The notes: generated by a model not told the origin, from the letters alone. Numbered from the stretch's first letter, positions 30,663 through 47,586 are shown. The stretch: 64,000 bases of DNA from a bacterium (GCA_965205865.1 CBDBHR010000029.1:256001-320000), one strand, 5' to 3'. A program made the numbers and translations.

Positions 30663-31920
30663 CCGCGTCATCCGTCTGTTCGACGGCGAGATGAGCACCC
30701 CGGCTGCTGCGGAAAGCGATTTCACGACCCGGGGCGGGATGGGACGGTATCAACAGGCTCAGCCCCAGTGACACGACGGCCATGGCGGCTCCGATGAGGA
30801 AGACCGCGGTACGTCCCGTCTCGTCCGCCACCCAGATAAGACCCAATATCCACGGCATGGTGACCGCCGCGATGTGGTTGATGGTGAAGGACACCCCCGC
30901 CGTCGAGGCGATGTCCGCCGGATCAGCAATCTTACGGAAGTAGCTCTTGATCGCGATAGCGAGGGCGAAGAAGAGGTGATCGAGGATGTACAGCATGGCA
31001 GCGATCCACGCCGTCTCGACGAAAGCGTAGGCCATGAAGATGCCGATCAGACCGGTGTACTCCAGGATCAACGCAGGTCGCTCACCCCACCTGATGATGA
31101 GCCGGCCCACGCGCGGCGCGAGCCAGATCGCGATAACATGATTGAGCGCGAAGAGCGCTACCACCATCTCCGGACGGTATCCAAACTCGGCGACTATCAG
31201 GAAGGCCGCGAATCCGACGAAGATCTGGCGCCTGCCGCCGGACATGAACTCGAGCGCGTAATAGAGCCCGTAGCGACGGCGCAGGACCACGCTCATCGCC
31301 TGGAAGCTGTCGGCTTTGAATCGCGGAAAGAAAGTCCAACAGAAAAAGCCGAGCCCCATGCTCAGACTCCCCGCGATCAGGTAGACAACCCAATAGGGCG
31401 ACGCCAGGAACTCGAAAGCGGCATAGACGAGACCATAAGCAAGAAGCGAGGCCACCGACGCCGCAGCCGCCATGCGGCCAAGCACCAGCGGCAGCTCCTG
31501 CTTCGTCGACCATTGCATGGAGAGTGACTGCTCCATGGTGGCGAGGAAGTGGAAGCCGATCGACATCAGGAGCGTCGTGAAATAGATACCCCAAACCACA
31601 GGTAGGAGGCCGGTCAGGGCCACGCCGAGCCCCATCAGCGTTAGCGCGAGGATGGTGAAGGTCTGCTGGCGCCAGATCAGCAGCAGGTAGACCACGGTGA
31701 AGGCGAGGAATCCCGGGATCTCGCGCACTGATTCCAAGATCCCTCGTTCCAGACCGGTGAACGCGACTTTCTCCACGGCAAAATTGTTGATGATCACCAT
31801 CCACGGTTCGAAAGCGATGGGGATCGCGGCGGCAAGGATGAGGAGCAGAATTTGTGGACTGCGCCAGCCGTCTTTCAGGACCCCGTGCCAATCAGCATGG
31901 AGTGGGTTCCATCCCACCAT
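30643..31920 (-). CDS. MFS transporter
   Basis: About 12 hydrophobic segments; SVREIPGFLAF, GGRRQIF and FTINHIAAV motifs. Confidence 0.85.
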   Translation of the reverse strand: MVGWNPLHADWHGVLKDGWRSPQILLLILAAAIPIAFEPWMVIINNFAVEKVAFTGLERGILESVREIPGFLAFTVVYLLLIWRQQTFTILALTLMGLGVALTGLLPVVWGIYFTTLLMSIGFHFLATMEQSLSMQWSTKQELPLVLGRMAAAASVASLLAYGLVYAAFEFLASPYWVVYLIAGSLSMGLGFFCWTFFPRFKADSFQAMSVVLRRRYGLYYALEFMSGGRRQIFVGFAAFLIVAEFGYRPEMVVALFALNHVIAIWLAPRVGRLIIRWGERPALILEYTGLIGIFMAYAFVETAWIAAMLYILDHLFFALAIAIKSYFRKIADPADIASTAGVSFTINHIAAVTMPWILGLIWVADETGRTAVFLIGAAMAVVSLGLSLLIPSHPAPGREIAFRSSRGAHLAVEQTDDAVSDVAR

Positions 31921-32109
31921 TGTTCTCTATTTCAGTCGGTTTGTTGCATCAACGCGCCAGGCAAAGGCGCCTGGATGTTTGCAGTTTAAAGGCATGCAAG
32001 CGAATACGTATGCGGGCATATCCTGAAGATACGTCGAGCACGTTTTTCGAGCAAAACTTTGTCAAGAAGGTATCGTACTCTCGTTTCAAGAACTGGATGC
32101 GATTTCTTA

Positions 32110-32304
32110 TCAGTTTTGTGGTTGCCATGTATTAATTATAATATATTCACTAAAAATTGCAAAATATAAGTGAACATATTGGAAAATTTGGTTCAATTTG
32201 ACTAAACAATCGCGTTTAACTGTGTTTGAGCCTTTCAAGTTCATCGGCGCAGACGTCGGGAAAACATCGCATACCTCACCGATGCGCTTCATTTCCCAAC
32301 TCAT
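32110..32304 (-). pseudogene. Type I RM specificity subunit, 5' remnant
   Basis: MSWEMKRIGEVCD is a typical HsdS start and lies downstream of an hsdM remnant; similarity is lost after about 20 codons. Confidence 0.45.
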
Positions 32305-32374
32305 TCCTACAGCCCCTTAAATCAGCCTGCAAGTTCATTTTGTTCATTTCCTGATTCGAGCAGCAACTCACTGA

Positions 32375-32578
32375 CTATTTCTCCTGTTCTTCCCCGTACA
32401 TCTTGGGATCCGGATCAATCTCGATGACCTCGCCATCTCGTAGAACCACCACCCCGGTTTTGTGCTGATGCGCAACTTTATGAGCACGCTTGACGGCACG
32501 GTGTAACGCGTTAAGGATGTCCTGCGTTTCCTTGTCGCCATGTTGCGAGGTGGGGATATCTCGATTTCGTTCAGTCAC
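32375..32578 (-). CDS. Small protein coupled to the zeta-toxin-like gene (putative antitoxin partner)
   Basis: GTGA start/stop overlap with the upstream kinase gene; ALHRAVKRA...VVVLRDGEVIEI is typical of such partners. Confidence 0.6.
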   Translation of the reverse strand: MTERNRDIPTSQHGDKETQDILNALHRAVKRAHKVAHQHKTGVVVLRDGEVIEIDPDPKMYGEEQEK

Positions 32579-33099
32579 GGGTTTTCTCCCTTTTCAATTA
32601 ATGTGGGAATACGGCCGCTAGTATCGAACCACTGCCAATAATCGACGATGTGACGGTACTTTTTCTGAAAATTCTTCAAACCGCTTGCAAAGCGGCGGCG
32701 AATGACATCCGGTGGGACATAGTGGCCGCCTTGCCTTACGCGCGATTCGACCCGCTTGATCGCTTCTTCCGGATTTGCCAGCGACAGAAATATCAGCTTG
32801 ACCGTGTAACCGTCACTGCGCCAGCGCGGGATCATTCTGGCATAGGTGAGACCGGACAAGGAAGTTTCAAAGGCAAAACTCCTTCGCTGCTGCACGTGTT
32901 TTTTAATTTCCTCCAACATCAACCGGGCAGCTCGAAAAAGAGCGGCTTCCGGCTGAAAGGGGGACAGGCCCGCTCCGATCAGGTCAGCGTTGACAAAGGA
33001 TGGACATTTTGCCTCGTGCGGTAAATGCTCCAGTGCGAAAGTTGTCTTTCCAGCGCCGTTGGGTCCGGCGATGATAATGATTTTCCGGTCGACGTCCAT
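32575..33099 (-). CDS. Zeta toxin family P-loop kinase
   Basis: IAGPNGAGKTT, FVNADLI, FAFETSLSG and RVRQGGH motifs; ATG 33099 after GAGGAG. Confidence 0.87.
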   Translation of the reverse strand: MDVDRKIIIIAGPNGAGKTTFALEHLPHEAKCPSFVNADLIGAGLSPFQPEAALFRAARLMLEEIKKHVQQRRSFAFETSLSGLTYARMIPRWRSDGYTVKLIFLSLANPEEAIKRVESRVRQGGHYVPPDVIRRRFASGLKNFQKKYRHIVDYWQWFDTSGRIPTLIEKGENP

Positions 33100-33103
33100 C
33101 TCC

Positions 33104-33373
33104 TCATGTCCCCAACGCCTCAAAGTTTTTCTCAATGGTCACCGCCAGCGTCGCCGCCTCTGCGTTCATTTCGTCCATTTCCTCGTGAATCACGCGCAGG
33201 GACTCCCTGAAATCGAAGTTCTCGTCCTCCACTTCGGGAGCGACGCCTACGTAGCAGCCCGGCGTCAAGCTCCAGTCATTGGTTGCCAATTCCGTTTTTT
33301 CGACCAGCTTCGCCAGCCCTTCGACAATGCGAAGTTCCGCATCGGGAAAGCGTTTTTGCAGCCAGCGCGCCTG
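33104..33373 (-). pseudogene. Type I RM methyltransferase, C-terminal remnant
   Basis: WLQKRFPDAELRIVEGLAKLV...NDWSLTPGCYVGVAPE...LRVIHEEM...IEKNFEALG is an HsdM C-terminus; the 5' part is missing. Confidence 0.75.
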
Positions 33374-33813
33374 TCACCAGATAAAACATTGCATTAAAAC
33401 CAGATGCGAGACTAGCTTAGACATTGTGAATAGTCAACGCGCCTCGAGTTGGGAATCGTCGATTTCAGGGAGCTGTGTCCGGGCTTCCAACTAAGGCGAG
33501 ATGTTAAATTGAGAGTGGAAGAATCCAAACGTTTTACTTGGATTGGACCTGCATAACCCCCTTTGGATAAAGTCGGTCCGGTTGAAGGCGGAAACAAAAA
33601 TGCGCTTGATTCCACTACCAGCATGCGGTAATTGTCTTTCGACCTGCTTACGTACCAGACACTCATGACGGTGAAGAAAAAAGTCGCGGTCATCTTTGCA
33701 ATTACGAAGGGCAGCCCGCGGGTACAATCGACACTGGCTGTTTGGTGGGGTTGACTGGACAGCCTGTTTAGAAATCAAATCAGGAAGAAATTTCCAATGA
33801 AAGGAAGGAGATT

Positions 33814-34209
33814 ATGGATCTAGGCGTATTTTCGATCAGTCTTGCAGTCAAGGATATTACCAAATCGCGGGATTTTTATGAAAAACTCGACTTCAAGGTC
33901 ATCGGCGGAGATTTAGCAGAGAATTGGCTTATCCTACAGAACGGCACGAGCACGATTGGGCTCTTTCAGGGGATGTTCGATACGAACACGTTAACCTTCA
34001 ATCCTGGTTGGTGCGCCTCGGGCAACCACCCGTCGGAATTCGACGACGTGCGTGACATCCAAGGCATGCTCAAGGAGCGCGGAATTGAGATCGTGCAAGA
34101 GGCTGATGAAACGGGGACTGGCGTGGCGCACTTGTTCTTCATGGACCCCGACGGAAACCCTATCCTGATCGATCAACACGTCCCGCGACCGGGTGATTCC
34201 GAAGAATAA
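33814..34209 (+). CDS. VOC/glyoxalase family protein
   Basis: FSISLAVKDI..SRDFYEKL, IGLFQGMF and DPDGNPILIDQH motifs; AGGAG RBS. Confidence 0.9.
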   Translation: MDLGVFSISLAVKDITKSRDFYEKLDFKVIGGDLAENWLILQNGTSTIGLFQGMFDTNTLTFNPGWCASGNHPSEFDDVRDIQGMLKERGIEIVQEADETGTGVAHLFFMDPDGNPILIDQHVPRPGDSEE

Positions 34210-34227
34210 ACAGGAATGCAAGCTGGG

Positions 34228-34350
34228 GCGACTCGATCGAGACGGATTACCCTGACCGATGTCGAGCGTAGAAAGTTCGGGGACTTAACCGGGTTCTTCC
34301 CACTTGAGAGTCTCTTCCAGCTTTTTGACGCCCTCGGTCTCCTCTGCAGT
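34228..34350 (-). pseudogene. Possible DUF1801-like fragment
   Basis: AEETEGVKKLEETLKWEEP* resembles the ETLKWGEP motif; disrupted and short. Confidence 0.35.
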
Positions 34351-34521
34351 GCGCACTTGGTTCTGCTCGCCTTGCGGTGAGTTTCCGTTGTGCGCTCGAC
34401 TTCCAACGCGTTGGATTCGTCGACATTCACGGCGCCGGCTACTCCGCCAGGTTTCCGTTCAGAAGACGAACAATGCTCATGGGGTTGAAAGGACACTGCA
34501 CTTAGGGCTGTCGTTGAATGT

Positions 34522-35706
34522 TTATGCGGTTTGGGACGCAGTGTCAAAAGAAAGTGTAGCAAGAGCCCCCGCTACTAAGCGTGCCGCGTGCTCGATATCC
34601 TCGTAGGAGGTGAAGCGGCCAAAGCTGAAGCGAATGGAAGAATCGCTCTGAGTTGAGCTCAATCCGAGTGCGCGAAGTACATGCGATGGTTCGGGAATAC
34701 CAGACGCGCAAGCAGCGCCTGTGGATGCGGCAAGTCGTGGCTGAAGGACACCGAGGATGTCCTGCGCATGGAAGCCGTCAAAGCGGATGTTGGCGTTACC
34801 CGGATGACGTCGTGGGCCAATTGTTCCGTTGACGGTGATCGGAGAATTTCCGGCTTGTAGCAAGTGAACAAACGAATCACGCTGCTGAGCGACCCGTGTG
34901 CGTTCCTCGATCGATTTTTCGTCAGCCATGATCCCGGCTGCCGTCGCCATACCCACGCAAAGCGGCATCGGGACGGTGCCGGAACGCAGACCCTCTTGCT
35001 GCCCACCACCATAAATCAATGGCTCGACCGACTCTTTGAGATCACGGCGAACGTACAACGCGCCGATGCCTTGTGGCCCATACATTTTGTGCGCTGAAAG
35101 GCTGATCAAGTCTGTATGCGTGGCAAGATCACCAACTTCCATTCCACAGGGAGCTTGCGCCGCATCACAATGAAACAGGATACCATAGGGCGTGAGCAGT
35201 TTGGCAATCCTTGGGATGTCCTGAATTGTCCCGACTTCGTTGTTCACCGCCATTAGTGAAAGAAGGAGAACATCTCTATCTACGCGTTCTTCCAACACAT
35301 CAAAGTCAACAAATCCTTCGCTGTCGACTGCAATAGTCTCGACGGTGATTCCTTCACGTTCGGACAGCGCCCGCGCTGCCCCTAAGACGCACTTGTGCTC
35401 GATTGCGCTGACCAAAATCCGGCGACGGCCGCCCGGTGCTCGTCGTGCAAGACCGAGTAATGCGAGATTGTTGGCTTCTGTGGCTCCGGAGGTGAAGACC
35501 ACCTCATCGGCATCGGCTCCTATCAAGGCCGCTACGGATGCCGCCGCTTCGCGAACGGCTTCCTCAGCTCGCCACCCGATGACGTGATCGCTCGAGTGAG
35601 GATTGCCGAATGAATTCTCCCAACAGGGAGTCATCTTTTTCAAGACCCGCGGATCAACCGGCGTGGTCGCCTGATAATCCGCGTAAATGGTCTTTCGGTT
35701 GTCCAT
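34522..35706 (-). CDS. sspA: Cysteine desulfurase (IscS/DndA-type), SspA by context
   Basis: YADYQATTP, FGNPHS, FTSGATEANN, SAHKMYGP (PLP Lys) and STGAACASG (catalytic Cys); divergent from DUF4007-ATPase-PAPS reductase genes. Confidence 0.9.
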   Translation of the reverse strand: MDNRKTIYADYQATTPVDPRVLKKMTPCWENSFGNPHSSDHVIGWRAEEAVREAAASVAALIGADADEVVFTSGATEANNLALLGLARRAPGGRRRILVSAIEHKCVLGAARALSEREGITVETIAVDSEGFVDFDVLEERVDRDVLLLSLMAVNNEVGTIQDIPRIAKLLTPYGILFHCDAAQAPCGMEVGDLATHTDLISLSAHKMYGPQGIGALYVRRDLKESVEPLIYGGGQQEGLRSGTVPMPLCVGMATAAGIMADEKSIEERTRVAQQRDSFVHLLQAGNSPITVNGTIGPRRHPGNANIRFDGFHAQDILGVLQPRLAASTGAACASGIPEPSHVLRALGLSSTQSDSSIRFSFGRFTSYEDIEHAARLVAGALATLSFDTASQTA

Positions 35707-35739
35707 GCGTTGCTCCTGGGAATTGCCGTAAGTTTGTCA

Positions 35740-35771
35740 TTGACACTACGAAAATATATCCGTATTGTCAA
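35740..35771. promoter_or_regulatory. Overlapping divergent sigma70 promoters for sspA and sspBCD
   Basis: Plus strand: TTGACA(35740-45)-17 nt-TATTGT. Minus strand: TTGACA(35771-66)-17 nt-TAGTGT. Confidence 0.7.
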
Positions 35772-35799
35772 ATTGGACGTTTTAACTGATGGAGAGACA

Positions 35800-36735
35800 A
35801 TGCTGCGAGGTCCCCTCTACAAAGACAACTACCAACCACAGCTGTCGGGGCACGAGACGTTTCCGCTCAGATACGGATGGCTCAAGAAAGCCTTCGACGC
35901 CGTTCGAGAAACCGAAAGCGACCAGAACAACAAATCGGTTTTCTCGGCAGACGATGCCATCGCACGGTTCGGCGTCGGTAAGAACATGGTGGCCTCTATC
36001 CGGCATTGGGCGATTGCGACAGGCGTCATCAAGGATGCGTCGGGTGGAACGGTCACCACGTCAATTGGCCGATGCTTATTTGCTGAAGGTGGTCTCGACC
36101 CTTACATGGAGCACCCGGACACTGCATGGCTCATTCACTGGCAACTCTGCGGCCAACCGCACAAGACCACGTGGTTTTGGGCATTCAATTATTTTCCAGC
36201 ACCATCATTCGATCGCGAGATGCTTGCCAGGAGCTTGCAAAAACTTGCGAAAGATCGTGGATGGCCACGCACGTCTACCGCTACGATTAAAAAGGACGTT
36301 GCATGTTTTGTGCGCACCTATGTATCGTCTTTACCATCAGCAAAGACGAGTTACGAAGATACTTTGGAGTCCCCACTCACGGAACTCGGTTTGATCAAAC
36401 CTATCGGGAAGCGAGACGGATTCCGCTTCATTCGAGGGCGTAAGCCTTCACTCGGGCCTGGCGTGTTTTGCCACGCAGTCACCCATTTCTGGTCACGTTA
36501 TTCGAAAGCGCGAACCCTCTCCTTCGAGGCGCTTGCCCATGAGCCCGGATCTCCGGGAAGGGTTTTTCTGCTGGACGAGAACGACTTGATGGATCGTCTT
36601 TCTACGCTCGAAAGCGTTAGTAACGCCCTTTACAGGTGGTCGGAAACGAGTGGGCTGAAGCAACTTATACGAAACCGCGATTTGGATGATAAAGACACAA
36701 TCCGCTTGATTGAGGGGGACTATGTTGGAGCATGA
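35800..36735 (+). CDS. sspB: DUF4007 family protein (SspB, nicking endonuclease of Ssp PT systems)
   Basis: SGHETFPLRYGWLKK, FGVGKNMVASIRHW, DPYME..TAWLIHW, SPLTELGL and SPGRVF motifs; ATG 35800 after GGAGAG. Confidence 0.88.
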   Translation: MLRGPLYKDNYQPQLSGHETFPLRYGWLKKAFDAVRETESDQNNKSVFSADDAIARFGVGKNMVASIRHWAIATGVIKDASGGTVTTSIGRCLFAEGGLDPYMEHPDTAWLIHWQLCGQPHKTTWFWAFNYFPAPSFDREMLARSLQKLAKDRGWPRTSTATIKKDVACFVRTYVSSLPSAKTSYEDTLESPLTELGLIKPIGKRDGFRFIRGRKPSLGPGVFCHAVTHFWSRYSKARTLSFEALAHEPGSPGRVFLLDENDLMDRLSTLESVSNALYRWSETSGLKQLIRNRDLDDKDTIRLIEGDYVGA

Positions 36736-36753
36736 CGGAAAGGACAAAACCTG

Positions 36754-39700
36754 ATGGCGCTCGCCGACCGAATCCGGATCACCCGGCGTTTTCAACGCGC
36801 GGTCCGCATAGATAGTGATCTTGGTAATCCTGCGACTTTGGATGGATTTATCTGTCCTCGATCCTCCGCCGAGGTTCTCGAGACAATGGCGCGGCATGTA
36901 GCTGAGAACGGCCAGGGCGCATTCACATGGACGGGTCCCTACGGCAGCGGAAAATCAAGTTTAGCCATTGCCCTGTGCGCCCTGCTCAATGGAGACAAGA
37001 AGCTCGCGCGCAATGCGGAATCGGTTCTGGGGCGGGAAACGGCATCGATCATATGGGAGGCATTACCGCCCAGGACGAGAGGCTGGCATTTTCTGCCTGT
37101 GGTTGGCCGGCGGGATCGTCCCGCGCAAGTTATGGGTGAAGCCATTATCGATTACGATTTCCTGACAGGTCGGCGACCCAAGTCCTGGACCGACAAGCGC
37201 GTTCTCGACACCATTGACGAGATTGAGGCGCGCAATCCACATAGCAGCGGTGGTTTGCTGATGTTCATCGATGAGATGGGTAAATTCCTGGAAGCCACGG
37301 CGAACGACGGATCGGATATATACTTCTTTCAAGAACTCGCGGAGCGGGCTTCGCGTAGTGACAAGCGACTCATTTTAGTTGGTATCCTCCATCAAGCTTT
37401 CGAGGAGTACGCCCATCGTTTGTCACGTGAAATGCGAGACGAATGGTCGAAGATCCAGGGTCGTTTCGTGGACCTTGCCGTCAACACTGGCGGAGATGAG
37501 CAAATCGACGTGATCGGACGTGCAATCGAAAGCGATCACGGTCTGGAAATACCGGGTCCGTTGGCCGAAAACGTGGCTCGACAAACGCAACGAAAGACCT
37601 CTCCTCACTTTGCAGACATGTTGGAAGATTGCTGGCCGCTTCACCCGATCGTCGCCTGTCTGCTGGGTCCTGTTTCACGACGCCGGTTCGGTCAGAACCA
37701 ACGGAGTATTTTCGGATTCCTCAACTCGGCCGAGCCGCAGGGGTTCCAGGATTTTCTCAGACACGCCAGTGACGATGACATTTATGCTCCCGATCGCCTG
37801 TGGGATTACCTGCGGATCAACCTGGAACCGTCTATCCTGGCCTCCCCTGACGGGCACCGCTGGGCGTTGGCTATGGAAGTTCTGCAGCGATGCGAAGCTA
37901 TGGGTGGGGAGGATATACATCTCCGGCTGCTCAAGGTAATTGCAGTGGTCGATATGTTCAAGGACCGCTCCGGCCTTGGAGCGAGTCACGATCTGTTGAA
38001 ACTCGCCTTTCCAGGCTATGATTTTGAAGATATCGGGCGTGCTTTGGATGATTTGCAACGTCGGTCGTTCATTATCTATCGGAAGTTTGTCGATGCATAC
38101 TCGATCTTCGAAGGCAGTGACTTCAATATCGACCACGCGGTAGAACAGGCAATGGGGAGCAAGGATGAGTTGGACTTCACCGCGCTCAACGCGCTGTCCG
38201 GCTTCCAGCCCATCTTGGCGAAGCGACATTATCATGAAACAGGCGCGATGCGCTGGTTCGACGTCGTTGTTGTTCCCCTGGCGGAGATCGAAAATGTAGC
38301 AGCCGACTATGCACCGCTCCATGGTGCTATTGGGAGTTTCTTTCTCACGATTCCCACACAGGGTGAATCGGAAGAGGTGGCGGTGGAAATATGCAGTCGG
38401 GTTGCGCAGATGAGTAGTAATTGGGATATTGTAATTGGCCTGTCGCAGCGAGTCTGGGGAATTCAGGATCTGGTACGTGAACTGTTGGCGCTGGGCAGGT
38501 GCGCGATGAAACTCCGGAGCTACAAGGTGATAGAATTGCCCGCATTGAGGTCCATGCGCGCATCGGTGTGATACAAGAGCAATTGGAGGGTGAGTTCAGT
38601 CGAGCCTTCAACAGCGCGTTCTGGTATCACAAACGATTTAAATCCAAGTTACTTCCGCATGCGGAACTCAATCGTCTGGCCTCCGACATCGCCGATGCTC
38701 GGTTTGGGAGCGCGCCACGGCTCCACAATGAGCTTCTGGGACACGTAAAGCCTTCAAGCAATGCAGTCGCCGCGCGAAATGCTCTCCTGCGACTGATGGT
38801 GCTCAATGAAGGGGAGACACGTCTCGGCATCAAGGGATTTCCTGCCGAAGGCGGTCTCTTCGCATCGTTGTTGCAGGCAACCGGGTTGTACCGCGAAACA
38901 GAGGAGGGATGGCGTTTCATGGCTCCCGAACCAGGGGCGAATGATCCCCGCGACCTGGAACCTACCTGGCAGGCGGCCATGGATTTGCTGAAAGTCAACT
39001 CGCACCGAGCTGTTCCGGTCGCTGAGATTTACGATGTCTGGCGCCAAGCACCGTTCGGGATAAAGGACGGTCTGCTTCCGGTATTGGCAGTGGCGTTTCT
39101 GCTATCGCAGCGTACGAAACTGGCCTTCTACCGTCAGGGGATTTTTCAGGCAAGCGTGTCTGATCTGGATATGGACTATCTCGCCAGGGATCCGGCCGAC
39201 ATTCAGCTTCGATGGATGAACCTCACTGAGACCTCGCGCCAACTCTTGTCCGAAATGGCCGATATCGTGCGTGAATTGCAAGAAGACAATACATTGGCTC
39301 ACATGGAGCCGATAGACGTTGCTAAAGGTTTAGTGGCGATTTATGACCAGCTGCCAGCTTGGGTCAGACGAACGCAGTGCCTTTCAGGCAATTCCAAGCG
39401 TATTCGTCAACTGTTCAAGCAAGCCAACGATCCGAACAGGTTGATCTTCGACGATATCCCGGAAGTGATAAAAGACTGTCCGGTTGCTGGTGAATCAGTA
39501 GCCATACAGCAGGTTGCGAACTACGTTCGCGAGGGTTTGACGGAGCTACAACAGGCCTATCCCACGATGCTCAACCGTATGAGAGATTCACTGCTCACCG
39601 AACTACAGGTACCGAATACCTCACCATCGATAATGGCCGAGTTGCGCGCTCGCGCCAGCAACGTCCGCGATCTTGGTGGAGATTATCGTCTGGAGGCGTT

Positions 39701-40145
39701 TATCATGCGTCTCTCGCAATTTGAAGGACAAGCAAAAGAAATAGAGGATTTGGCCAGCATGTCTGTCAACAAACCACCACGGGACTGGATCGATCCGGAT
39801 ATCGATCGCGCGATGGTGGAACTTGCCGAACTTGCCCAAAAGTTTCTACGCGCCGAGGCATTCGCCCACGTCAAGGGACGCAAAGACAAGAGACACGCCA
39901 TGGCAGTGGTGATAGGCATAGGTGGCCGGCCGACGCCGGCTCATGACGAGTTCGATATCACCGATCCGGAACGCGAGGAGGTGAATGCGCTGATTGACCA
40001 GATAGACACAGTTCTGAAACACAGCGGTGAAAAGCGGCGTAACGTAATCCTGGCTGCCCTGGCTGAGTTGAGTGCCCGCCATCTTCGTGACACGGACATA
40101 GTCAAACCTGAAAAGCTCGGTGGTAAGAAATGGAACGCATGGTGA
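36754..40145 (+). CDS. sspC: Large P-loop ATPase (SspC), split by a one-base frameshift at about 38494
   Basis: RRFQRAVRIDSD, GPYGSGKSS (Walker A), FIDEMGKFLE (Walker B), PLHP, FGQNQRSIF and PFGIKDG motifs. Restoring one base gives about 1130 aa. Confidence 0.85.
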
Positions 40146-40156
40146 GGAACGCAGGC

Positions 40157-40984
40157 ATGGAACGACATGTGTTGGGGCTCTCCGGTGGTCGCGACAGCGC
40201 GGCGTTAGCCGTTTACGTGCGCCAGATTCATCCCGAACTGGATATCGACTACTTCTTTACGGATACCGGCAAAGAGCTACCGGAGGTCTATGAATTTCTG
40301 GTCAAGCTCGAAGGGTTTCTGGGTAAACCCATCGTGCGGTTGAATCCCGACCGGAATTTTGACTATTGGCTGAAGCAGTACAACAACTTTCTGCCGTCGC
40401 CACAGGCACGTTGGTGTACAAGGCAGCTGAAATTGCGACCATTTGAGCAATGGATTCGGCCAATTCTCGATAGTGGCAAAACCGTTTACAGCTACGTCGC
40501 CATTCGCGCGGACGAAGAGTACCGTGAAGGTTACGCGTCCAAACACGACGCTCTCGTCGTGCAGCTCCCTTTCAAAGATGCCGGCATCGACAAAGCAGGT
40601 GTTCTGGAAATTCTGGAAGGCGCGGGATTGGGGTTGCCGAAATACTATGAGTGGCGCACTCGTAGTGGATGCACCTTTTGCTTCTTCCAGCAGAAAATCG
40701 AATGGGTGCGTCTCAAAGAAAAGCACCCGGACTATTTTGAAGAAGCCAAGGCTTATGAAAAAGACGCTGTGGAGCACGGATCGCCTTTCACATGGAGCCA
40801 AGGCGAGTCATTAGCGGAGTTGGAGCAGTCGGAGCGCATCGAGCAGATCAGACAAGATCATGAAAGACGACTCGCTCGCATGCGTTCGAAAGTAAAACCC
40901 AACCCGCTGAGACCAGATAGTGACCCTCTTGATATAGATGACCTGTATGGCCAAGCGAAGGTTTGCTTGGTGTGCCATAAATAG
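40157..40984 (+). CDS. sspD: PAPS reductase family protein (SspD)
   Basis: LSGGRDS PP-loop, DTGKELPE, RWCT, RSGCTFCFFQ and C-terminal CLVCHK. Confidence 0.9.
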   Translation: MERHVLGLSGGRDSAALAVYVRQIHPELDIDYFFTDTGKELPEVYEFLVKLEGFLGKPIVRLNPDRNFDYWLKQYNNFLPSPQARWCTRQLKLRPFEQWIRPILDSGKTVYSYVAIRADEEYREGYASKHDALVVQLPFKDAGIDKAGVLEILEGAGLGLPKYYEWRTRSGCTFCFFQQKIEWVRLKEKHPDYFEEAKAYEKDAVEHGSPFTWSQGESLAELEQSERIEQIRQDHERRLARMRSKVKPNPLRPDSDPLDIDDLYGQAKVCLVCHK

Positions 40985-41008
40985 AAACAGGAAAATCAAG
41001 ACAGTTCA

Positions 41009-41500
41009 ATGACAAAAAACGAATCAAGGCAGTCTTCGCCGGTGGATATGGTGGCAGCACAAGATGAATACTGGACTCACGTTTGGGATATATGCCTGTG
41101 GCCACGACAGTGGCTGACTTGCAACCCGGATCTAAGTTTGTCATGGCAAAGCGTTGAACTCAACAATAGTCAGAGAAGCGAAGTCCCTCAGTATGCCGGT
41201 GTCTATTCGCTGGTGATTCAACCTGGAATTGCTGGTCACCCAGCTTGTTCTTATCTCATGTATCTCGGCAAAGCCAAAGACCTTCGTCAGCGTTTTATTG
41301 ATTATTTGACTGTCGAACGTAACAAGCGTCCAAAAATCGTACGGCTTCTCGAAAAGTATCGCGGTTACATACAGTTCTTCTATTCCGGTATTGACGAAAG
41401 GAAGCTTGATAAGATGGAAGAACAGTTGATTAATGCTTTCGTTCCTCACTGTAATTCAAGGTTCACCGGGGAGATAAACATGATAGTTGGAGCATTCTGA
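41009..41500 (+). CDS. GIY-YIG nuclease family protein
   Basis: GVY...YLGKAKDLRQRFIDY...MEEQLI...PHCN supplies the Tyr/Arg/Glu/Asn pattern. Confidence 0.75.
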   Translation: MTKNESRQSSPVDMVAAQDEYWTHVWDICLWPRQWLTCNPDLSLSWQSVELNNSQRSEVPQYAGVYSLVIQPGIAGHPACSYLMYLGKAKDLRQRFIDYLTVERNKRPKIVRLLEKYRGYIQFFYSGIDERKLDKMEEQLINAFVPHCNSRFTGEINMIVGAF

Positions 41501-42798
41501 TGACCACCAACCGAAATCCGCTGTTTCTACCTGCCCTACGCGCAAAAATGGGGGATTGGATCTACTACATAGCTTTCATTAGTATGAAGGAAGTCGCCTC
41601 CCGAGTCAGCGTCGTCGATGATATCCATACAAGTACGTCACTCAAGGAAATGCTACAGAGAATGCTCACGAATGATTCTAAAAAGATTACCGAGTATTTG
41701 CTTGGCCAAGAACAGAGGTTTTTCAATGCGATCGTAATTGGCAGTTACAGCGGCAGTCCGAACTGGCACGACCTGTCCGTCAAGGGAAGAGAGGGAGTTG
41801 CCGACGTTCCGGTACACCCTGAAGGCTCCATAGGCTTTCTCGAACTCAGTGGGGACGAAACGTTGTTCGCGATTGACGGACAGCATCGTGTACAGGGGAT
41901 AAAGGAAGCCGTAGTGCAAAACAGCTCACTCGAAGAAGAAGAGGTGTGCGCAATCTTTGTTAAAGGAGTCACGGCCAGTGAACGCGATAAGGACCCTGAC
42001 GGCTTTGAGCGCACACGGCGCCTTTTTTCGACACTGAACCGGTATGCCAGGCCTGTAAATAAGCGGGATATCATCGCGCTCGACGAAGACGATGTCGTTG
42101 CTGTTGTCACGCGGAGGCTCTTGGAAGAGCATCCCCTGTTACGCAACAAGGTAGACACGGGTCCGAAGAACTCCATCAAGGCCGATGACCGTACCAATTT
42201 GACAACAATTGCAACGTTGTATGACACGATGGACGTTGTCTTGCGCGATCGAAAAAACGGTTGGAACGACTACAAACGTTGGCGTCCGCCTGATGAAGAA
42301 GTCGACGAATTTTACTCGAAGGCCGTGCAGTTTTGGGATGGCTTGAGTAGTCAGGCTCCACCGCTTAAGGAATTACAGGAAAGCTCCGCAGAAGAAGAAA
42401 TTGCGGGCAAGTACCGGGGCTCCTATGGCGGGCATTTACTGTTTCGACCGGTCGGTCTGCTTATGGTCACCCGCGTTGCTATGGACCTTCGTTCCAGTAT
42501 GGACCTGAACGATAACTCTGCTTTGGAACGGATTTGTCACACTCCCACTGAATTATCGGAATATCCATGGACAGGTCTGCTTTGGGACTGCACCAACAAG
42601 CGGATGATAACTGCGAAAGAGAATCAGAAAGTCGCCCGCCGATTGCTCTTCAACGCACTGGGAGGTGACCTGACCAAATATCCTTACAGAACAACAGCGG
42701 AAGATTTGAGAAAGGAACTCGCAGGGATAATGAATCGGGAATTGAGTGATGTCAATCTACCCAGCTACCAACTAAGCATGAAAGACGACATCAAGTAA
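41500..42798 (+). CDS. DGQHR-domain (DndB-like, ParB/Srx fold) protein
   Basis: LQR, FFNAIV, FAIDGQHR and RRLFSTLN motifs; TGATG overlap with the GIY-YIG gene. Confidence 0.85.
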   Translation: MTTNRNPLFLPALRAKMGDWIYYIAFISMKEVASRVSVVDDIHTSTSLKEMLQRMLTNDSKKITEYLLGQEQRFFNAIVIGSYSGSPNWHDLSVKGREGVADVPVHPEGSIGFLELSGDETLFAIDGQHRVQGIKEAVVQNSSLEEEEVCAIFVKGVTASERDKDPDGFERTRRLFSTLNRYARPVNKRDIIALDEDDVVAVVTRRLLEEHPLLRNKVDTGPKNSIKADDRTNLTTIATLYDTMDVVLRDRKNGWNDYKRWRPPDEEVDEFYSKAVQFWDGLSSQAPPLKELQESSAEEEIAGKYRGSYGGHLLFRPVGLLMVTRVAMDLRSSMDLNDNSALERICHTPTELSEYPWTGLLWDCTNKRMITAKENQKVARRLLFNALGGDLTKYPYRTTAEDLRKELAGIMNRELSDVNLPSYQLSMKDDIK

Positions 42799-42824
42799 CC
42801 CGCCGAGTTCGCTGTATCGCTATC

Positions 42825-43667
42825 CTACGCATCCAGCGCCGCGACTAGTTCCTGCGTATCAAAGTTGAGGAGGAATTGCGCGTAGAACGTTTGGAAAAGA
42901 TCGGCGATATACTCCGTTATCTCAACGTTACATTCCCCCTCAGGTTCACGCTCCCCCTTGATACTGTATTGGAAAGAAGGAATTTGTTGGTCAACAATCA
43001 GGTATTCGTACCAAGTCGCTTTCTTCCTTTTTTCTTCATCATGCGTAAGGGAGTGGCGACGAATCAAGGTGTATCCGAAAGACGCGCTATTCTCGAACCG
43101 CTTGGAACCGATAAGTTGGTATCGTTTCTTACCACAGAACGCCACCGCACCGGCTCCACCCATGTTGTATTTGCCATGAACGAAGTGAATCTCGTTTTTG
43201 TTGCCGTGCAAGATTGAGAGAAACGTCTTCTCGAAGTCCTCGGGTGACTGTCCTTCTCCGTCGTCATAGACTATCAATGAGGTGTTCATTTTTGGTCCGT
43301 CTGCCAGAATCTGCAGTCGCTCAGCTTGAACTCTCCGCATCGTTCCCAAGTCCCAGTTTTTATTGTCCGGGAAAAAGCGACCAACGGCAGTCTCGATCGA
43401 TCTCGGAGCTTCTTCGGACCGAGGGTCGGTACCCTCTTCGAGACACCTGCGCATGAGAATAGCGTCGATACCGTTGGTGATCTTTTCAATCAGTGCAGGA
43501 ATCGGAGAGGCCTGCTGGTTTTCAACCACGCTGAAGTTGCTCTCGTTCTGCCCATAGGGTCGCCAGTTCGATGAACTGTTCAGGAGTAAATAACGTTCAA
43601 GGATCTTTTCGACTTCTGCTTCCACGGGTGCTCTGTAAAGATCCCAGAAAAGTTGTTCGATGTTCAT
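42825..43667 (-). CDS. GHKL (HATPase_c/MORC-like) ATPase, probably shortened
   Basis: EKITNGID (N box), DDGEG (G1) and GKYNMGG (G2). Only 280 aa, with an abrupt switch to a short tail. Confidence 0.65.
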   Translation of the reverse strand: MNIEQLFWDLYRAPVEAEVEKILERYLLLNSSSNWRPYGQNESNFSVVENQQASPIPALIEKITNGIDAILMRRCLEEGTDPRSEEAPRSIETAVGRFFPDNKNWDLGTMRRVQAERLQILADGPKMNTSLIVYDDGEGQSPEDFEKTFLSILHGNKNEIHFVHGKYNMGGAGAVAFCGKKRYQLIGSKRFENSASFGYTLIRRHSLTHDEEKRKKATWYEYLIVDQQIPSFQYSIKGEREPEGECNVEITEYIADLFQTFYAQFLLNFDTQELVAALDA

Positions 43668-43896
43668 TTTACGACCCTACTTAACAAATGAGTACGCTTG
43701 TCCTGGCGATTCGGATTCTCGTCCAGGAAAACGAATCTAACAAAAAAACACATGAGACTGCAAGGCAAAATTTGTGAACGGAGGAGGCCAGCACTATTGC
43801 CGGTATCCACTGCCCCCAAAGGAAGAATTCGAGGGAAACGTACCTTGCATTCAGTCTTTTTTATGGTCTGAATTCAGATCAATCTGGGGAAGGTTC

Positions 43897-44196
43897 ATGA
43901 AATTATCAAGTCAGATGAAGCCGATCAGTTATCTCAAAGCGCACGCCGCGAAAATCGTGCGCACGCTCTGTGAACAACATGAGCCCTTGATAATTACCCG
44001 GAACAGGGAAGCCAAGGTGGTCATTCAGGATATCGACGCCTACGAGCAAACGCAGGAGACAGTTGCGCTACTGAAGATTCTCGCGCTTGGCAGCCACCAA
44101 ATTGAAGTGAGTCACAACCGGCCGACAACGTCATCGCAAGACTCCGGCAGGGTCGCAGGACTTGCTGATGCCCTTCCTGGTTCAACTGACAGATGA
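43897..44196 (+). pseudogene. Phd/YefM antitoxin, C-terminus degenerate
   Basis: KPISYLKAHAA...PLIITRN.EAKVVIQD..YEQTQET.ALLKILALG; the frame drifts after this. Confidence 0.75.
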
Positions 44197-44275
44197 CGCG
44201 ACAGGCGACTTGGACGAAATCTACGATTTTATCGAACGCATCAATTCCGAAACCACGTTTGTATCTGTAAGGTAA
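44168..44275 (+). pseudogene. ParE/RelE toxin, 5' remnant (35 codons)
   Basis: MPFLVQLTDDATGDLDEIYDFI, then a premature stop; directly after the antitoxin. Confidence 0.65.
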
Positions 44276-44343
44276 AAAGGCCTAATCCATGAGCGAAGCA
44301 GTGGTCTGCCGGACGAGATTGTCTTCGGTATAGGGTGAAAGGT

Positions 44344-45837
44344 TCATGGAGTCTTCTTCAAACGATTCTGCAACTCGCCACCTTTGTCCGTCAGCTGGTA
44401 TTTCTGCTTGCTGCTGGTCGGCTTGTCCGGGACCGTCATTTCCAGCCATCCGCTATCAAGCAGAGGTTGGAGGTAGTTTCCTCGGAAAGTCTTCCAGTGC
44501 TTCAAGCCTAGCAGGGCCATGATTTCCTTCGCCGGCCGGGGCACGCGGCAATACCAGACAACTTGCGCAGTAACTTGTGCGGTAACTTGTGTGGTCAGGT
44601 CCTCCAAGCTGTTCTCGAGTTGCTGCAGCATGCTGTTCGATAAGGCTTCAGAGTCTTCCTGAGATTTTCTTCCAGTTGGAGCGGTGCCCTGGTCCCGACT
44701 GAGTCCCGACTTGGTCCCGACTTGCGCAGTCTGTCTGGGAAACGTGGTTGTAACCCACGACTCCGACACCGCGATCACCGGCTCGGCGACCCCGTGCTCG
44801 CGGCACAGATCACGAATGCGCCGGATACCGGAACCAATTCTCTCGACCGCCTCCATCCGGTGCAGGATGCCAAACAACAGCGGGTTGCGTGGAATGCTCT
44901 TGAAACCAAGGTCCGCTTCAGTCATATCGGCGGGCAACCCACCCGGGCTGGTAATTTCAAGCCGGTCCGTGAAAAGGCATATCTGCGCATTCGCGGTGGA
45001 GCGGTAGTCACGATGGGCCAAGGCGTTGACGACCGCTTCGCGAATAGCTTCTTCCGGCAGTTCCGGCCACTCCTCCCGCCTCAGGCGCTTGATGATGTAC
45101 TCGACGTTGATCTTGGAGAGAATCCAGACCATCACCTCCTCCATCATCGAATAGACGTCGCCGTGGAAATCACGCCTATCGAGAATGCGCACCTTGTCGG
45201 TTCCCATAAACAGAGCGCAGGCAACATCGGCGCTAATATTGAACTTGCGGATGTCCCGGGCCAGCAACCAGGCGCCTGCATGTGTCATCCGGTCGTCCTC
45301 ACCGATCAGGTGCAGGTTGCGTAGTGCGATCGTCGGTTTCATCTCGGTGGGAATTTTGGCGCGGCGCTGAAACAGGGACCAGTTCTCTTCATTGAGGTCT
45401 ATCTCCAATGAAAATTTGTCGCACGCGGTTTCGTCGAAGTGGATCAGCCCTTCCGCGTAGAAGAACTCACGGATCTCCTCACGCGACATCTGCTGGCTGC
45501 TCGACCCCTCGCGGATGAAGAACTTGCCCCCGAACGAGTAGGGCTTGCTCTGCTGGGCCGGCACTCTCACGCAGAGCACTCCATCAATGCTTTCGATCTC
45601 CACCGCGATTGGAGGATCGGCGGAACGGGCGATGGACTGCACCTCGGATTTCAACCGATTATGGTTGGCAACCCCGCATACCTGTCCGTCATCCGTCACG
45701 CCAAGCAGAATCGTCCCCCCCGTGGCGTTGGCAAAGGCGCATATCTCACGCCCGAGCCCGGACGTACCGGAGCGCTTGAAATCCGTCGTGAAACCTTCGC
45801 CGAGGGAGAGGAGGTCGGAGAGTGTCTTTTTGTTCAT
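44344..45837 (-). CDS. Schlafen/AlbA_2 + HATPase_c_4 + C-terminal HTH protein
   Basis: EGFTTDFKRS, ICAFANATGGTILLGVTDDG, REAVVNALAHRDY, SPGGL, RNPLL, ERIGSGI and PDKPTSSKQKY motifs. Confidence 0.85.
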   Translation of the reverse strand: MNKKTLSDLLSLGEGFTTDFKRSGTSGLGREICAFANATGGTILLGVTDDGQVCGVANHNRLKSEVQSIARSADPPIAVEIESIDGVLCVRVPAQQSKPYSFGGKFFIREGSSSQQMSREEIREFFYAEGLIHFDETACDKFSLEIDLNEENWSLFQRRAKIPTEMKPTIALRNLHLIGEDDRMTHAGAWLLARDIRKFNISADVACALFMGTDKVRILDRRDFHGDVYSMMEEVMVWILSKINVEYIIKRLRREEWPELPEEAIREAVVNALAHRDYRSTANAQICLFTDRLEITSPGGLPADMTEADLGFKSIPRNPLLFGILHRMEAVERIGSGIRRIRDLCREHGVAEPVIAVSESWVTTTFPRQTAQVGTKSGLSRDQGTAPTGRKSQEDSEALSNSMLQQLENSLEDLTTQVTAQVTAQVVWYCRVPRPAKEIMALLGLKHWKTFRGNYLQPLLDSGWLEMTVPDKPTSSKQKYQLTDKGGELQNRLKKTP

Positions 45838-45884
45838 ACTGCTATTTATCTTCTCATCTACCAATTCAGAATTCATTTTGCTCT

Positions 45885-46220
45885 TCAAGAAAAACGGAGT
45901 GGATATTTACCAATCTCCACAAGAATTTCCGGTTTCCCGATCTTTTGCGCAAAGATGTTACAAGTTGTCGCTTCCTTGACAGACCGCATAGTGGTTCGAC
46001 CAAGCTTGCTTATACTATTCAGATTCTTTCGTGCCGCTTCAAATCCATTGATAACCATCAACTTTATGCAGTACTCGGTCGCCTTGTCTGTGTCCAACCC
46101 CGATTGCTCGAGCTTCTCCTTGGAAGGGATGTAGAAAATCTCCACACAATTCGGTTGGCACTTCTTCAAGACGAGCTTGCCGTGACGATATTCATCGATA
46201 TTTTCGTATATGCGAGCCAT
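45885..46220 (-). pseudogene. Hypothetical, probably a truncated N-terminal fragment
   Basis: The first approximately 60 aa look protein-like; the remainder looks out of frame. Lies next to an ISAzo13 end. Confidence 0.3.
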
Positions 46221-46254
46221 AAATGTTTACTACCTATTATTCGACCATTGCTTA

Positions 46255-47541
46255 GGGCTTGTTACAAAATAAGTTGAACATCTTTGAGTTTCATATAGGG
46301 TGAATGGTGTAGTTCCATTGAGGAAACTTTTTTGCAAATTTTAGATTTATGTTATCAAATTCTTCGTCGGATACTTTCACACCAGTTTTGTATTGCTTGC
46401 GATCAAGTCGAGCCTTGATATTTAGACCGTTTTTGGTCGTAGTCGAGGCGATCAATCTCACCACGGACTCATAGTTTTCTAGTGGCCTGCCTTTCCAATT
46501 CATGCTGATGAATGAAAACATACGATGCTCAATCTTGTTCCACTTGCTTGTCCCTAGTGGATAATGCGCGACTGTAATTGGTATCCCAAGCTTGTTTGCT
46601 AATTCTTGTAAGTAAAACTTCCATGCCCGAGCTCTACTGCCATTGCTCCCTCCGCCATCGGCACACACAAGAATCTCAGTTGCGTTGGGATAGCGCTTTT
46701 TTCCAAAGTGTCTCCACCACTGCCAAAGGCTATTGACAGCAAACTCAGAGGTATCTGAGGACATGCCAACGTTTACAAAACCTTCGTTGCGATTTATGTC
46801 ATATGTCCCATAAGGTATCGCCTTCCCCTCTCCGTAAGATTTGAAATCATGATCAAGAACTTTCTTGTCTTCCTTTGACCACACTCGACCCTCATTCTTG
46901 AAATTTCCGACAAGCTCCTTTTTTTTCGTATCAACCGATACCACTGGATTTCCGTATCTTGAAAACCGATGGACGGATCGATTAATGTGTCTGAATTGCT
47001 TGTCGCGGTTTGGGTGATTTATTCCTGAAAGCATCTTTTTGTTCGATCTCAGGGAATAGCCAAGCTCCTTTAAAAGCCTCATTACCGTGACATAAGATAC
47101 ATCAAATCCGGATTTTCTTAGCTGATCTGCGATAGATCTGGTCGATTTGCATGTCCACCGTAAGCGGCTCATCGGATCTCCTGCAGAAGACTCTTCAAGA
47201 ATGCCCTCAATTGCTTTGAGCAGCTCAGGACTCTTGTGCGTCAAGTACTTTCGTCCTCCACCCTCACGACGGAGACGATCGCTGTCAAGTGATAACGATC
47301 CGTCTTCTTCTAAATCACGGAGGCCCTGAGTTACCGTCGTTCTGGATAGTCCGGTCGTGCGACTTACTTGTGAAACACCTCCGTAGCCAAGCTCTTTTGC
47401 TTTTACTGCTGCAAACCACCTTTTCTGTGGCTCGTTGAGGTAGCCGAACGCCTTAATCCACTCTTTACTGATCTCATGGTTAGTCATGAAATCAGTAGAT
47501 CACAAAAGATCTAGTTGTTCAACTTATTTTGTAACAAGCCC
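46255..47541 (-). mobile_element. ISAzo13 family insertion sequence, complete
   Basis: Perfect 26-bp terminal inverted repeats GGGCTTGTTACAAAATAAGTTGAACA and a TTA target duplication on both sides. Confidence 0.92.
46291..47487 (-). CDS. ISAzo13 family transposase
   Basis: GDPMS.LRWT.KS, SVDTKKKELVG, DGGGSN and SKWNKIEHRMFS motifs. Confidence 0.95.
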   Translation of the reverse strand: MTNHEISKEWIKAFGYLNEPQKRWFAAVKAKELGYGGVSQVSRTTGLSRTTVTQGLRDLEEDGSLSLDSDRLRREGGGRKYLTHKSPELLKAIEGILEESSAGDPMSRLRWTCKSTRSIADQLRKSGFDVSYVTVMRLLKELGYSLRSNKKMLSGINHPNRDKQFRHINRSVHRFSRYGNPVVSVDTKKKELVGNFKNEGRVWSKEDKKVLDHDFKSYGEGKAIPYGTYDINRNEGFVNVGMSSDTSEFAVNSLWQWWRHFGKKRYPNATEILVCADGGGSNGSRARAWKFYLQELANKLGIPITVAHYPLGTSKWNKIEHRMFSFISMNWKGRPLENYESVVRLIASTTTKNGLNIKARLDRKQYKTGVKVSDEEFDNINLKFAKKFPQWNYTIHPI

Positions 47542-47586
47542 TTAGGAACAAACCTTAAATAACCTGTAATTCTTCCAATGGTGTGA

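Follow-up and report, generated by a model that had tools for sequence, protein, structure and literature searches.

The SspABCD-SspE system was reportedly described by Xiong and co-workers in 2020 as a defence that senses phosphorothioate (PT) modification of DNA, and to our knowledge only a few restriction partners of PT defence are known (DndFGH, PbeABCD, SspE, SspFGH and DndI). In the present work we analysed a stretch of 64,000 nucleotides (nt) of bacterial DNA (GCA_965205865.1, CBDBHR010000029.1:256001-320000; called the window below), where an SspABCD-type writer operon is followed by a gene for a stand-alone GIY-YIG nuclease and a gene for a DGQHR-domain protein. From sequence comparisons and predicted structures we propose, at a probability of roughly 60%, that these two genes form a modular PT-linked effector cassette, a two-protein analogue of SspE.

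In the characterised systems the PT-modifying components are sspBCD together with a cysteine desulfurase, either SspA or IscS; neither SspE nor SspFGH was present in 2,211 of 2,678 sspBCD clusters, for which further restriction partners were suggested, and SspFGH was found to be toxic to cells without PT (PMC8092258). SspE is built of an N-terminal DUF262 domain, where a DGQQR motif is required for GTP hydrolysis, and a C-terminal DUF1524 domain which is an HNH nickase (PMC9646914), and it has been treated as the equivalent of DndB in Ssp systems (PMC10853773). The same survey noticed URI/GIY-YIG nucleases bordering Dnd clusters, with a proposed role as back-up or suicide effectors; its passages used here do not describe a GIY-YIG/DGQHR dyad or a link of such a dyad to Ssp. 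In an earlier comparison a 'DGQHR domain protein' had occurred in Dnd genomes alone, in 7 of 7 (PMC3226654), and a DndB-like protein was reported to bind both ATP and GTP (bioRxiv 10.1101/2025.10.10.680097). The first, sequence-only reading of the locus had named Pbe proteins as further carriers of DGQHR domains, which is not borne out by the relevant sections of PMC6459918 and PMC10853773: in the former PbeB and PbeD are proteins of 66 and 152 amino acids (aa) of unknown function, and in the latter PbeD is read as a cognate of DndE. No description of a GIY-YIG plus DGQHR partner of Ssp was found in the open-access literature, where the supplementary tables of PMC10853773 and PMC8092258 may list such neighbourhoods, and PADLOC 2.0 holds no model for the pair.

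Genes were located by listing open reading frames (ORFs) and by searching hidden Markov model libraries (Pfam, PADLOC and TIGRFAM models), the PADLOC scan of the window covering 14 ORFs around the operon (28293-45888). The order sspA, sspB-sspC-sspD, GIY-YIG, DGQHR that had been noticed from the sequence was recovered with every gene in its place, as follows.

34522..35706, minus strand: sspA, cysteine desulfurase (PADLOC SspA 8e-127, DndA 1.1e-123; Pfam Aminotran_5 6.3e-76)
35710..36735, plus strand: sspB, DUF4007 (Pfam DUF4007 4.4e-88; PADLOC SspB 5.9e-106)
36754..38571, plus strand: N-terminal part of sspC, up to a frameshift (PADLOC SspC PDLC02780 positions 1-584, 6.4e-232)
38499..40145, plus strand: C-terminal part of sspC in the other frame (PADLOC SspC PDLC02780 positions 586-1044, 1.3e-155)
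40130..40984, plus strand: sspD, sulfur transferase of the PAPS-reductase type (PADLOC SspD 5.4e-137; Pfam PAPS_reduct 3.5e-07)
41009..41500, plus strand: stand-alone GIY-YIG nuclease of 163 aa, predicted effector nuclease (family alignment, fold, profile)
41500..42798, plus strand: DGQHR-domain protein of 432 aa, predicted NTP-dependent sensor or switch (TIGR03187, Pfam DndB, fold)
42825..43667, minus strand: internally deleted remnant of a GHKL-ATPase-like gene, convergent on the pair (tblastn against an 811-aa homolog; Pfam HATPase_c_3 2.6e-5, just under the cut-off)

Thus a cysteine desulfurase stands beside the operon, oriented divergently from sspB, sspC and sspD, and SspB and SspD are intact; an intact SspC of about 1050-1130 aa is lacking. 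The sspB models align from residue ~44 onward, and the true start of this gene may lie downstream of the annotated one. The spacer between sspD and the GIY-YIG gene is 24 nt, as had been claimed, and the GIY-YIG stop codon shares one nucleotide with the ATG of the DGQHR gene (TGATG), which is a layout typical of translational coupling. Scans for promoters and terminators between 34000 and 44500 stayed at chance level, with 6 promoters found against 7.4 expected and 13 terminators against 10.9.

In order to follow the pair in other organisms one genome per species was scanned with the DGQHR alignment, which gave 122 relatives; the best 80 loci were kept, and their ORFs were searched by phmmer with the window proteins, a flank being 10 kb. 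A GIY gene stands directly upstream of DGQHR in 76 of these 80 loci, the other four being L007, L010, L017, where the locus is cut 449 nt upstream, and L082. At least one of SspB, SspC and SspD is encoded in the flank of 58 loci, all three in 46, and no ssp gene in 22; a strong SspD match was obtained for 56 loci, and in 32 of these sspD immediately precedes GIY on the same strand. According to their record titles the best 80 loci come from Chloroflexota, Acidobacteriota, Latescibacterota, Gemmatimonadota, Proteobacteria, Cyanobacteria, Planctomycetota, Thaumarchaeota and Bathyarchaeia, and the closest among these best 80 of 122, at 82% and 78% identity, lie in metagenome-assembled genomes (MAGs) titled Candidatus Entotheonella. 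This recurrence shows that the sspBCD-GIY-DGQHR arrangement is found far beyond chance. The linkage is not a peculiarity of one genome.

The association is also not restricted to Ssp writers. PADLOC searches on the neighbours of 18 loci (107 of 159 ORFs) revealed complete Dnd clusters adjoining the pair in L032, which has PbeA and PbeC as well, and in L058; a BrxP-SspB-SspC-SspA hybrid in L013; PDC-M33 ABC genes in L064, L084 and L085, where the C gene of L064 and that of L085 are fusions with an SspD-like PAPS reductase; and distant PAPS reductases in L016 and L029. The locus had been taken at first for a 'hybrid' variant of six genes; it is not a one-off, and the picture has to be that of a widespread cassette, which occurs beside Dnd, BrxP and other PAPS-reductase systems too.

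Pairwise-distance matrices were compared over 46 loci and the window; the sizes of the correlations are what counts here, as the permutation test ignores relatedness. The coefficient (rho) was 0.85 for GIY against DGQHR, 0.78 for SspB against SspD and 0.42 for DGQHR against SspD. As far as such distances can tell, GIY and DGQHR co-evolve as one unit and their link to the writer is loose. The window itself is an example: its pair is closest to Latescibacterota loci (64-65% identity) with an SspD only 50% identical to that of the window, and in loci with an SspD 76-85% identical to the window's the GIY protein is 23-45% and the DGQHR protein 35-49% identical. Judged from these comparisons the two genes of the cassette are inherited together and combine freely with writers of the Ssp, Dnd and BrxP type.

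Two genomes carry more than one pair. On a single Dehalococcoidia MAG chromosome (L051) two different GIY-DGQHR pairs flank one sspABCD, one of them directly after sspD and the other beyond sspA, and chromosome OZ243971.1 has two complete Ssp-plus-pair loci (L018 and L020).

A natural swap of the cassette was met in G038, the sole same-genus genome compared. Its sspA, sspB, intact sspC and sspD are 84% identical at the nucleotide level to positions 34551-40986 of the window, and two stretches farther on, window positions 43597-44239 and 49087-50001, are syntenic as well. In the gap between sspD and the first of these stretches G038 encodes a convergent canonical SspE of 807 aa (PADLOC 1.7e-256; DUF262 and DUF1524), at the site where the window has GIY, DGQHR and the gene remnant, and no relative of GIY or DGQHR was found anywhere in the G038 genome. 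Since SspE is in the position of the pair, two closely related genomes combine one kind of writer, at one chromosomal site, with different modules downstream.

A scan of metagenomes anchored on sspD extended this result. From the 526 relatives obtained the best 80 were retained; 13 had less than 1.2 kb downstream and 67 were classified, leaving out 8 of 98 ORFs (among them both ORFs of L144 and of L160). The following was found directly after sspD.

SspE: 11 of 67 metagenome loci
GIY plus DGQHR: 4 of 67
Small ORF plus a diverged DGQHR-like gene: 4 of 67
SspH: 4 of 67
Strong PbeA or PbeC: 9 of 67
Full-length GHKL-like gene: 1 of 67
Avs1b: 1 of 67
No PADLOC match at <=1e-20: the remaining loci of the 67, including recurrent unannotated modules

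The small ORFs of the four diverged cases show a GIY...YIG...R...N pattern, and in hhalign their match with the GIY profile has a probability of 93% (E 2.6e-7). Even loci with an SspD 76-85% identical to that of the window have different modules: the pair in L092 and L100, SspH in L093, PbeA in L094 and L098, the GHKL-like gene in L095. The position after sspD is therefore a general plug-in slot for modules.

Two further recurrent sets of two genes were met in this slot. The first (about 785-800 plus 640-700 aa) follows sspD directly in L099, L124, L132, L138 and L150, and also in L091, L129 and L151, and has no PADLOC match at <=1e-20; the second, on the opposite strand, encodes about 300-360 plus 590-630 aa in L114, L115, L135, L139 and L165. 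Both are candidates for additional Ssp partners. In L097, L104, L117, L136 and L158 sspD is followed by a protein of ~545-575 aa with a weak match to the PbeA helicase (1e-21 to 1e-30) and an unannotated one of ~600-650 aa, which is a reduced or different Pbe-like module.

Three rival explanations of the pair were considered. The likeliest of them is a regulator resembling DndB that has an accessory nuclease beside it; an autonomous module of the defence island comes second and a helper of modification last. ParB-fold proteins can load onto DNA and slide along it, and the DGQHR protein has a predicted domain of this fold; together with the position in the same operon directly after sspD this would suit the last explanation, in which the pair is a part of the modification machinery that nicks or loads DNA for sulfur insertion or sets the choice or density of the modified motifs. 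We regard it as very improbable. The pair is missing from 59 of the 67 sampled sspD loci, the same pair accompanies Ssp, Dnd and BrxP-type writers which differ in mechanism, and sspBCD with a cysteine desulfurase were reported to modify DNA without such genes (PMC8092258).

Known partners were also sought outside the operon, in an assembly which is 91.9% complete. Their absence from the window, noticed at the outset, holds for DUF262, of which there are five matches in the genome and none in the window, and, among the ORFs scanned with PADLOC, for SspF, SspG and SspH, none of which gave a match. The Pbe models, in which PbeA is an HKD nuclease with an SF2 helicase and PbeC a CxC ABC ATPase, matched none of these ORFs. 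The SspE model found in the whole genome only a partial N-terminal match on contig C30. This is the sole protein of the genome with both DUF262 and DUF1524; it is HEC-06/Orf5-like (7.7e-203) and it resembles SspE (2.3e-14) at the N-terminus only, so the check for an SspE elsewhere in the genome brought up no SspE. DndC was not found in the whole genome either, and one SspF model (PDLC02793) detected nothing in it, this model being without a match in any control genome too; SspG and SspH were sought in the window ORFs and not genome-wide.

The sspC gene was implied to be broken by the sequence-only reading, and it proved to be truly frameshifted. Alignment to the intact 1129-aa sspC of G038 places a deletion of one nucleotide after position 38492, in a run of G residues, the two alleles differing as GGG and GGGG. 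Public contigs of four studies were aligned to the locus. Those of X1, possibly the source sample, and of X3, from another study and with 7 differences in 539 nt, share the deleted allele with the window; those of X6 and X7, from two further studies with more diverged strains and represented by one contig per run, have an extra G behind 38492 which restores the frame. The frameshift is real in this lineage. Contigs of X3, X6 and X7 bridge sspD, GIY and DGQHR, thus the arrangement is common to these strains. A programmed frameshift was considered and judged unlikely, in view of the difference in length between GGG and GGGG and the lack of a recognisable slippery motif. In the pair-bearing loci L053 (a Dokdonella MAG) and L081 (a Nitrospinales MAG) sspC is likewise split into two ORFs, for which decay or an assembly error is possible.

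In the assembly SspD, GIY and the DndB family are represented by a single gene each. With a frameshifted sspC and no second writer found in the assembly the system is probably non-functional here, that is, PT writing is probably off in this lineage and the GIY/DGQHR pair remains intact. The persistence of an intact pair next to a broken sspC leans weakly toward a logic like that of SspE, in which PT activates the effector.

The same persistence can be read in favour of a second explanation, by which the pair works autonomously, as a module for defence or as a selfish nuclease (for example type IV-like or acting by abortive infection), merely shares defence islands with PT systems and does not read PT. 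The surroundings of the window (a Phd/YefM gene, a Schlafen-AlbA gene, two transposases and a type I restriction-modification system) form just such a variable defence island, 22 of the 80 loci have no ssp gene in the flank, and in L045 and L078 the only writer is far away. The whole genomes of 17 such pair-bearing loci without flanking ssp were searched, 7 in a first batch and 10 in a second one. DndC was found at E<=1e-99 in 7 of 7 genomes of the first batch (one copy with an internal TGA, several just outside the annotated flank), against a background of about 4% of representative genomes with dndCD and 3% with sspBCD (PMC12914056); in the second batch DndC was found in 3 of 10, and one further genome had a canonical SspD on another contig. 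Moreover, two Entotheonella-titled genomes with an orphan DGQHR gene, G095 (L007) and G096 (L010), have no SspD or DndC at E<=1e-10, and the intact DGQHR gene is preceded in L007 only by fragments of SspD (residues 2-44) and of GIY (residues 131-163), and in L010 by a shorter SspD fragment with no trace of GIY. Both genomes without a writer have lost the intact GIY gene. These losses, the sspD gene that immediately precedes the pair in the same orientation (32 of 80 loci), and a slot otherwise occupied by SspE, SspH and modules of the PbeA/C type speak against an autonomous module, which we consider improbable, though less so than a role in modification.

The two proteins were characterised by profiles and predicted structures. 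Taken singly, the window GIY-YIG protein matches Pfam PF01541 only weakly (E 0.0072, 17 bits, below the gathering cut-off of 22.6); its identity as a GIY-YIG nuclease is nevertheless indicated by profile and model, since 12 of 18 family members match PF01541 at E<=0.01 (best 2.3e-5), the family profile finds the UvrC GIY-YIG domain in the PDB (E 0.0039), and Foldseek matches the model to the UvrC GIY-YIG domain 1yd2 (E 2.8e-4, probability 1.00, TM-score by target 0.62), 1yd2 and 1ycz both being at E about 3e-4. In an alignment of 77 sequences (A4) G64, Y66, Y85, G87, R95 and E137 do not vary and N149 occurs in at least 90%; Y66, Y85, R95, E137 and N149 presumably correspond to the catalytic residues of the GIY-YIG superfamily. 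The N-terminal extension is conserved (LWPxxW and further Trp residues) and predicted with low confidence, and the protein has no DNA-binding domain of its own. No PADLOC model matched it. Its profile collects 1,153 clusters (50% identity) at E<=0.001, a number that falls to 526 at <=1e-10 and to 130 at <=1e-30; throughout the best 150 clusters the relatives are stand-alone proteins of 107-245 aa, and a search for longer GIY relatives, which is weak evidence, showed no fused GIY-DGQHR form.

The DGQHR protein scores 109.5 bits with TIGR03187 DGQHR (cut-off 58.85; 2.4e-31) and belongs to the Pfam family DndB, PF14072 (86.2 bits, cut-off 29.1); PADLOC-DB 2.0 gave a weak DndB match only (1e-14). 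D126, G127, Q128, R130, R171, R173 and R174 are invariant in 78 sequences, with H129 kept in at least 90%. The AlphaFold model (mean predicted local confidence, pLDDT, 88) consists of an N-terminal ParB/Srx domain and a helical C-terminal half without a clear match. With VIA-align the five best matches are all of the ParB/Srx fold, with Z 5.6-6.7 over residues about 16-185 (PadC 6.7, KorB 6.6, pNOB8 ParB-N 6.2, sulfiredoxin 5.9), and lower on the list the N-terminal domain of SspE (6jiv, Z 4.2) and BrxU (Z 3.9) are also among the fold matches. The ParB/Srx matches come from VIA-align alone, Foldseek of the model against the PDB giving none at E<=0.001 and a profile search of the PDB with the DGQHR alignment none at E<=1. 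Neither the GIY nor the DGQHR protein matches the PADLOC SspE model at E<=0.001. Scanning viral contigs with the DGQHR alignment confirmed no relative among 35 pattern matches, and a predicted complex of the two proteins (score 0.28, mark 0.32) carries no weight either way.

The kinship with DndB brings up the third and likeliest of the rivals, namely that the DGQHR protein is a DndB-like regulator of ssp expression or of PT density and the GIY-YIG protein an accessory nickase or back-up suicide nuclease. The DGQHR protein is in the DndB Pfam family at 3e-24 and is 29% identical to canonical DndB over 206 aa; DndB was described as an ATP-modulated repressor of dndBCDE (PMC4507180; PMC6459918), Ssp systems have no known regulator, and a suicide-effector role has been proposed for GIY-YIG nucleases at the edges of Dnd clusters (PMC10853773). 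It remains unlikely in our judgement. With the DndB equivalog TIGR03233 the protein reaches 55.5 bits, far below the cut-off of 328; its gene is at the end of the operon, overlapping the stop of the nuclease gene, and not at the head; and in the sister genome G038 the same slot is taken by SspE, which is an effector. A canonical DndB (2e-161) coexists with the pair in L058 and a second, weaker DGQHR-family match (2e-11, phmmer) stands beside the Dnd cluster in L032, so the protein is not simply the DndB regulator. An operon regulator would furthermore be expected to track its operator, and DGQHR follows its nuclease (rho 0.85) much more closely than the writer (0.42).

The reading that we prefer is that of an effector tied to the PT writer, as the cassette shares the slot of SspE, SspFGH and Pbe modules, is inherited as a unit, occurs in writer-bearing genomes and is without its nuclease gene where the writer is gone. 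The suggestion that the pair is an undescribed effector arm of SspABCD has gained support from its recurrence, from SspE in the same slot, from the absence of SspE and DndC in the assembly and from the absence of a PADLOC model. In the proposed mechanism SspABCD would write single-strand PT, the mark being CpsCA in characterised systems, and the GIY-YIG plus DGQHR cassette would be plugged into the downstream partner slot. The DGQHR protein would be bound to DNA and act, dependent on NTP, as a sensor or switch, in the role that the DUF262 GTPase domain with its DGQQR motif has in SspE; it might read the PT status of the DNA and license the GIY-YIG nuclease to nick or cut invading DNA. Both proteins together would then carry out the task of the single SspE polypeptide with its DUF262 domain and HNH nickase. 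By analogy the domain logic appears to mirror that of SspE, a ParB-fold protein with a DGQxR motif and a nuclease, here split over two proteins and with another nuclease fold.

Several observations weigh against an SspE-like effector. DndB, the nearest named relative of the DGQHR protein, is reported as a transcriptional repressor (PMC4507180); BLASTP of the DGQHR and GIY proteins against the SspE of G038 showed no similarity; and the Z-scores of the DGQHR fold are modest (<=6.7). Among the 56 loci with a strong SspD there are 24 where sspD is not the immediate neighbour of the pair, and in L045 and L078 DndC lies 0.4 to 1.8 Mb from it. Among the 17 loci without ssp in the flank, 6 have only weak or distant PAPS-reductase matches or none: SspD-like matches of 1e-11 to 1e-16 in L014, L064, L084 and L085, where low-scoring calls are weakened by the fact that the SspD model also matches 2 of 14 control genomes at <=1e-10, and none at <=1e-10 in L016 and L029. 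An intact pair beside a broken sspC, finally, fits PT-activated, SspE-like logic and equally a pair that is independent of PT.

If the SspE-like effector holds, the cassette would be a concrete and widely distributed candidate for one of the missing Ssp partners. It is small, two genes in 1.8 kb with obvious mutational targets, and the division of sensor and nuclease between two proteins would let PT-dependent sensing be separated from cutting. A more far-reaching version, which we consider possible yet doubtful, would see in the dyad a universal PT-reader effector for any writer (Ssp, Dnd, BREX-4 BrxP, PAPS reductases of the PDC-M33 type), where DGQHR would be a nucleotide-gated clamp that senses the backbone sulfur and not a sequence motif and switches the GIY-YIG nuclease in trans. 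If this were true, the dyad would represent a new class of modification reader and would explain a part of the 84% of sspBCD clusters without a known partner.

The gene remnant behind the pair (42825-43667) is an ORF of 280 aa which keeps residues 1-233 and 774-811 of its 811-aa homolog in L075. Full-length GHKL homologs, which have no Pfam match at <=1e-6, accompany the Ssp-pair loci L033, L069, L070 and L075, and in L095 such a gene follows sspD immediately; this gene is an occasional neighbour of the cassette and may be another Ssp partner. The right flank that follows (43774-56859) is a variable defence island with the features below; in G038 a UvrD/GajB-like helicase gene lies between SspE and hsdM.

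43774-44196: Phd/YefM-type antitoxin
44344-45888: Schlafen-AlbA_2/HATPase_c_4 protein
46291-47487 and 47913-49043: two DDE transposases
49078-54852: type I restriction-modification system, hsdM, hsdS and hsdR

To the left of sspA there is an ORF of 186 aa (32575-33135, minus strand) for a zeta-toxin/AAA_33-like P-loop kinase. Farther away a fusion of an AAA-ATPase_like domain with a PDDEXK_9 nuclease (560 aa, 5346-7028, plus strand) is found among transport and metabolic genes, and 23817-28211 (plus strand) contains three consecutive F420 cofactor genes. They encode a ligase of the CofE type, CofD, and a radical-SAM protein of 856 aa that has a CofH_C domain and is matched by Radical_SAM in two stretches.

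Of the systems described so far, SspABCD-SspE is the closest to the locus of the window: the writer genes are the same, the effector comes directly after sspD, and in same-genus genomes it occupies the same slot. According to the models SspE and the pair would have in common an NTPase-type domain of ParB/Srx fold with a DGQxR motif and a nuclease. SspE is a single protein with DUF262 and an HNH nuclease of the DUF1524 type, whereas the pair is made of two proteins, with a GIY-YIG nuclease and a predicted sensor of the DndB/DGQHR family. SspFGH resembles the pair as an alternative multi-gene partner encoded beside sspBCD, and no homology between the two was found; SspFGH is toxic without PT, whereas the pair persists intact beside a frameshifted sspC, which argues weakly against an SspFGH-like logic.

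DndB is in the same Pfam family as the DGQHR protein and has the DGQHR motif and the ParB/Srx fold in common with it. Unlike DndB, the DGQHR protein is longer, has a distinct C-terminal half and is encoded at the end of the operon, in 76 of 80 loci with a GIY-YIG gene as the partner. The GIY protein has its fold and the positions of the residues that are catalytic in the GIY-YIG family in common with the N-terminal domain of UvrC, T4 EndoII, R.Eco29kI and Hpy188I; unlike these, it has a conserved N-terminal extension and is devoid of a separate DNA-binding domain. The type IV enzymes GmrSD and BrxU (DUF262 plus DUF1524) would be analogous in coupling a ParB-like NTPase to a nuclease that acts according to the modification state of the DNA. 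In these enzymes both parts are fused into one protein, the nuclease is of the HNH type, and there is no tie to a PT writer; it is the C30 protein which represents this type in the genome studied here.

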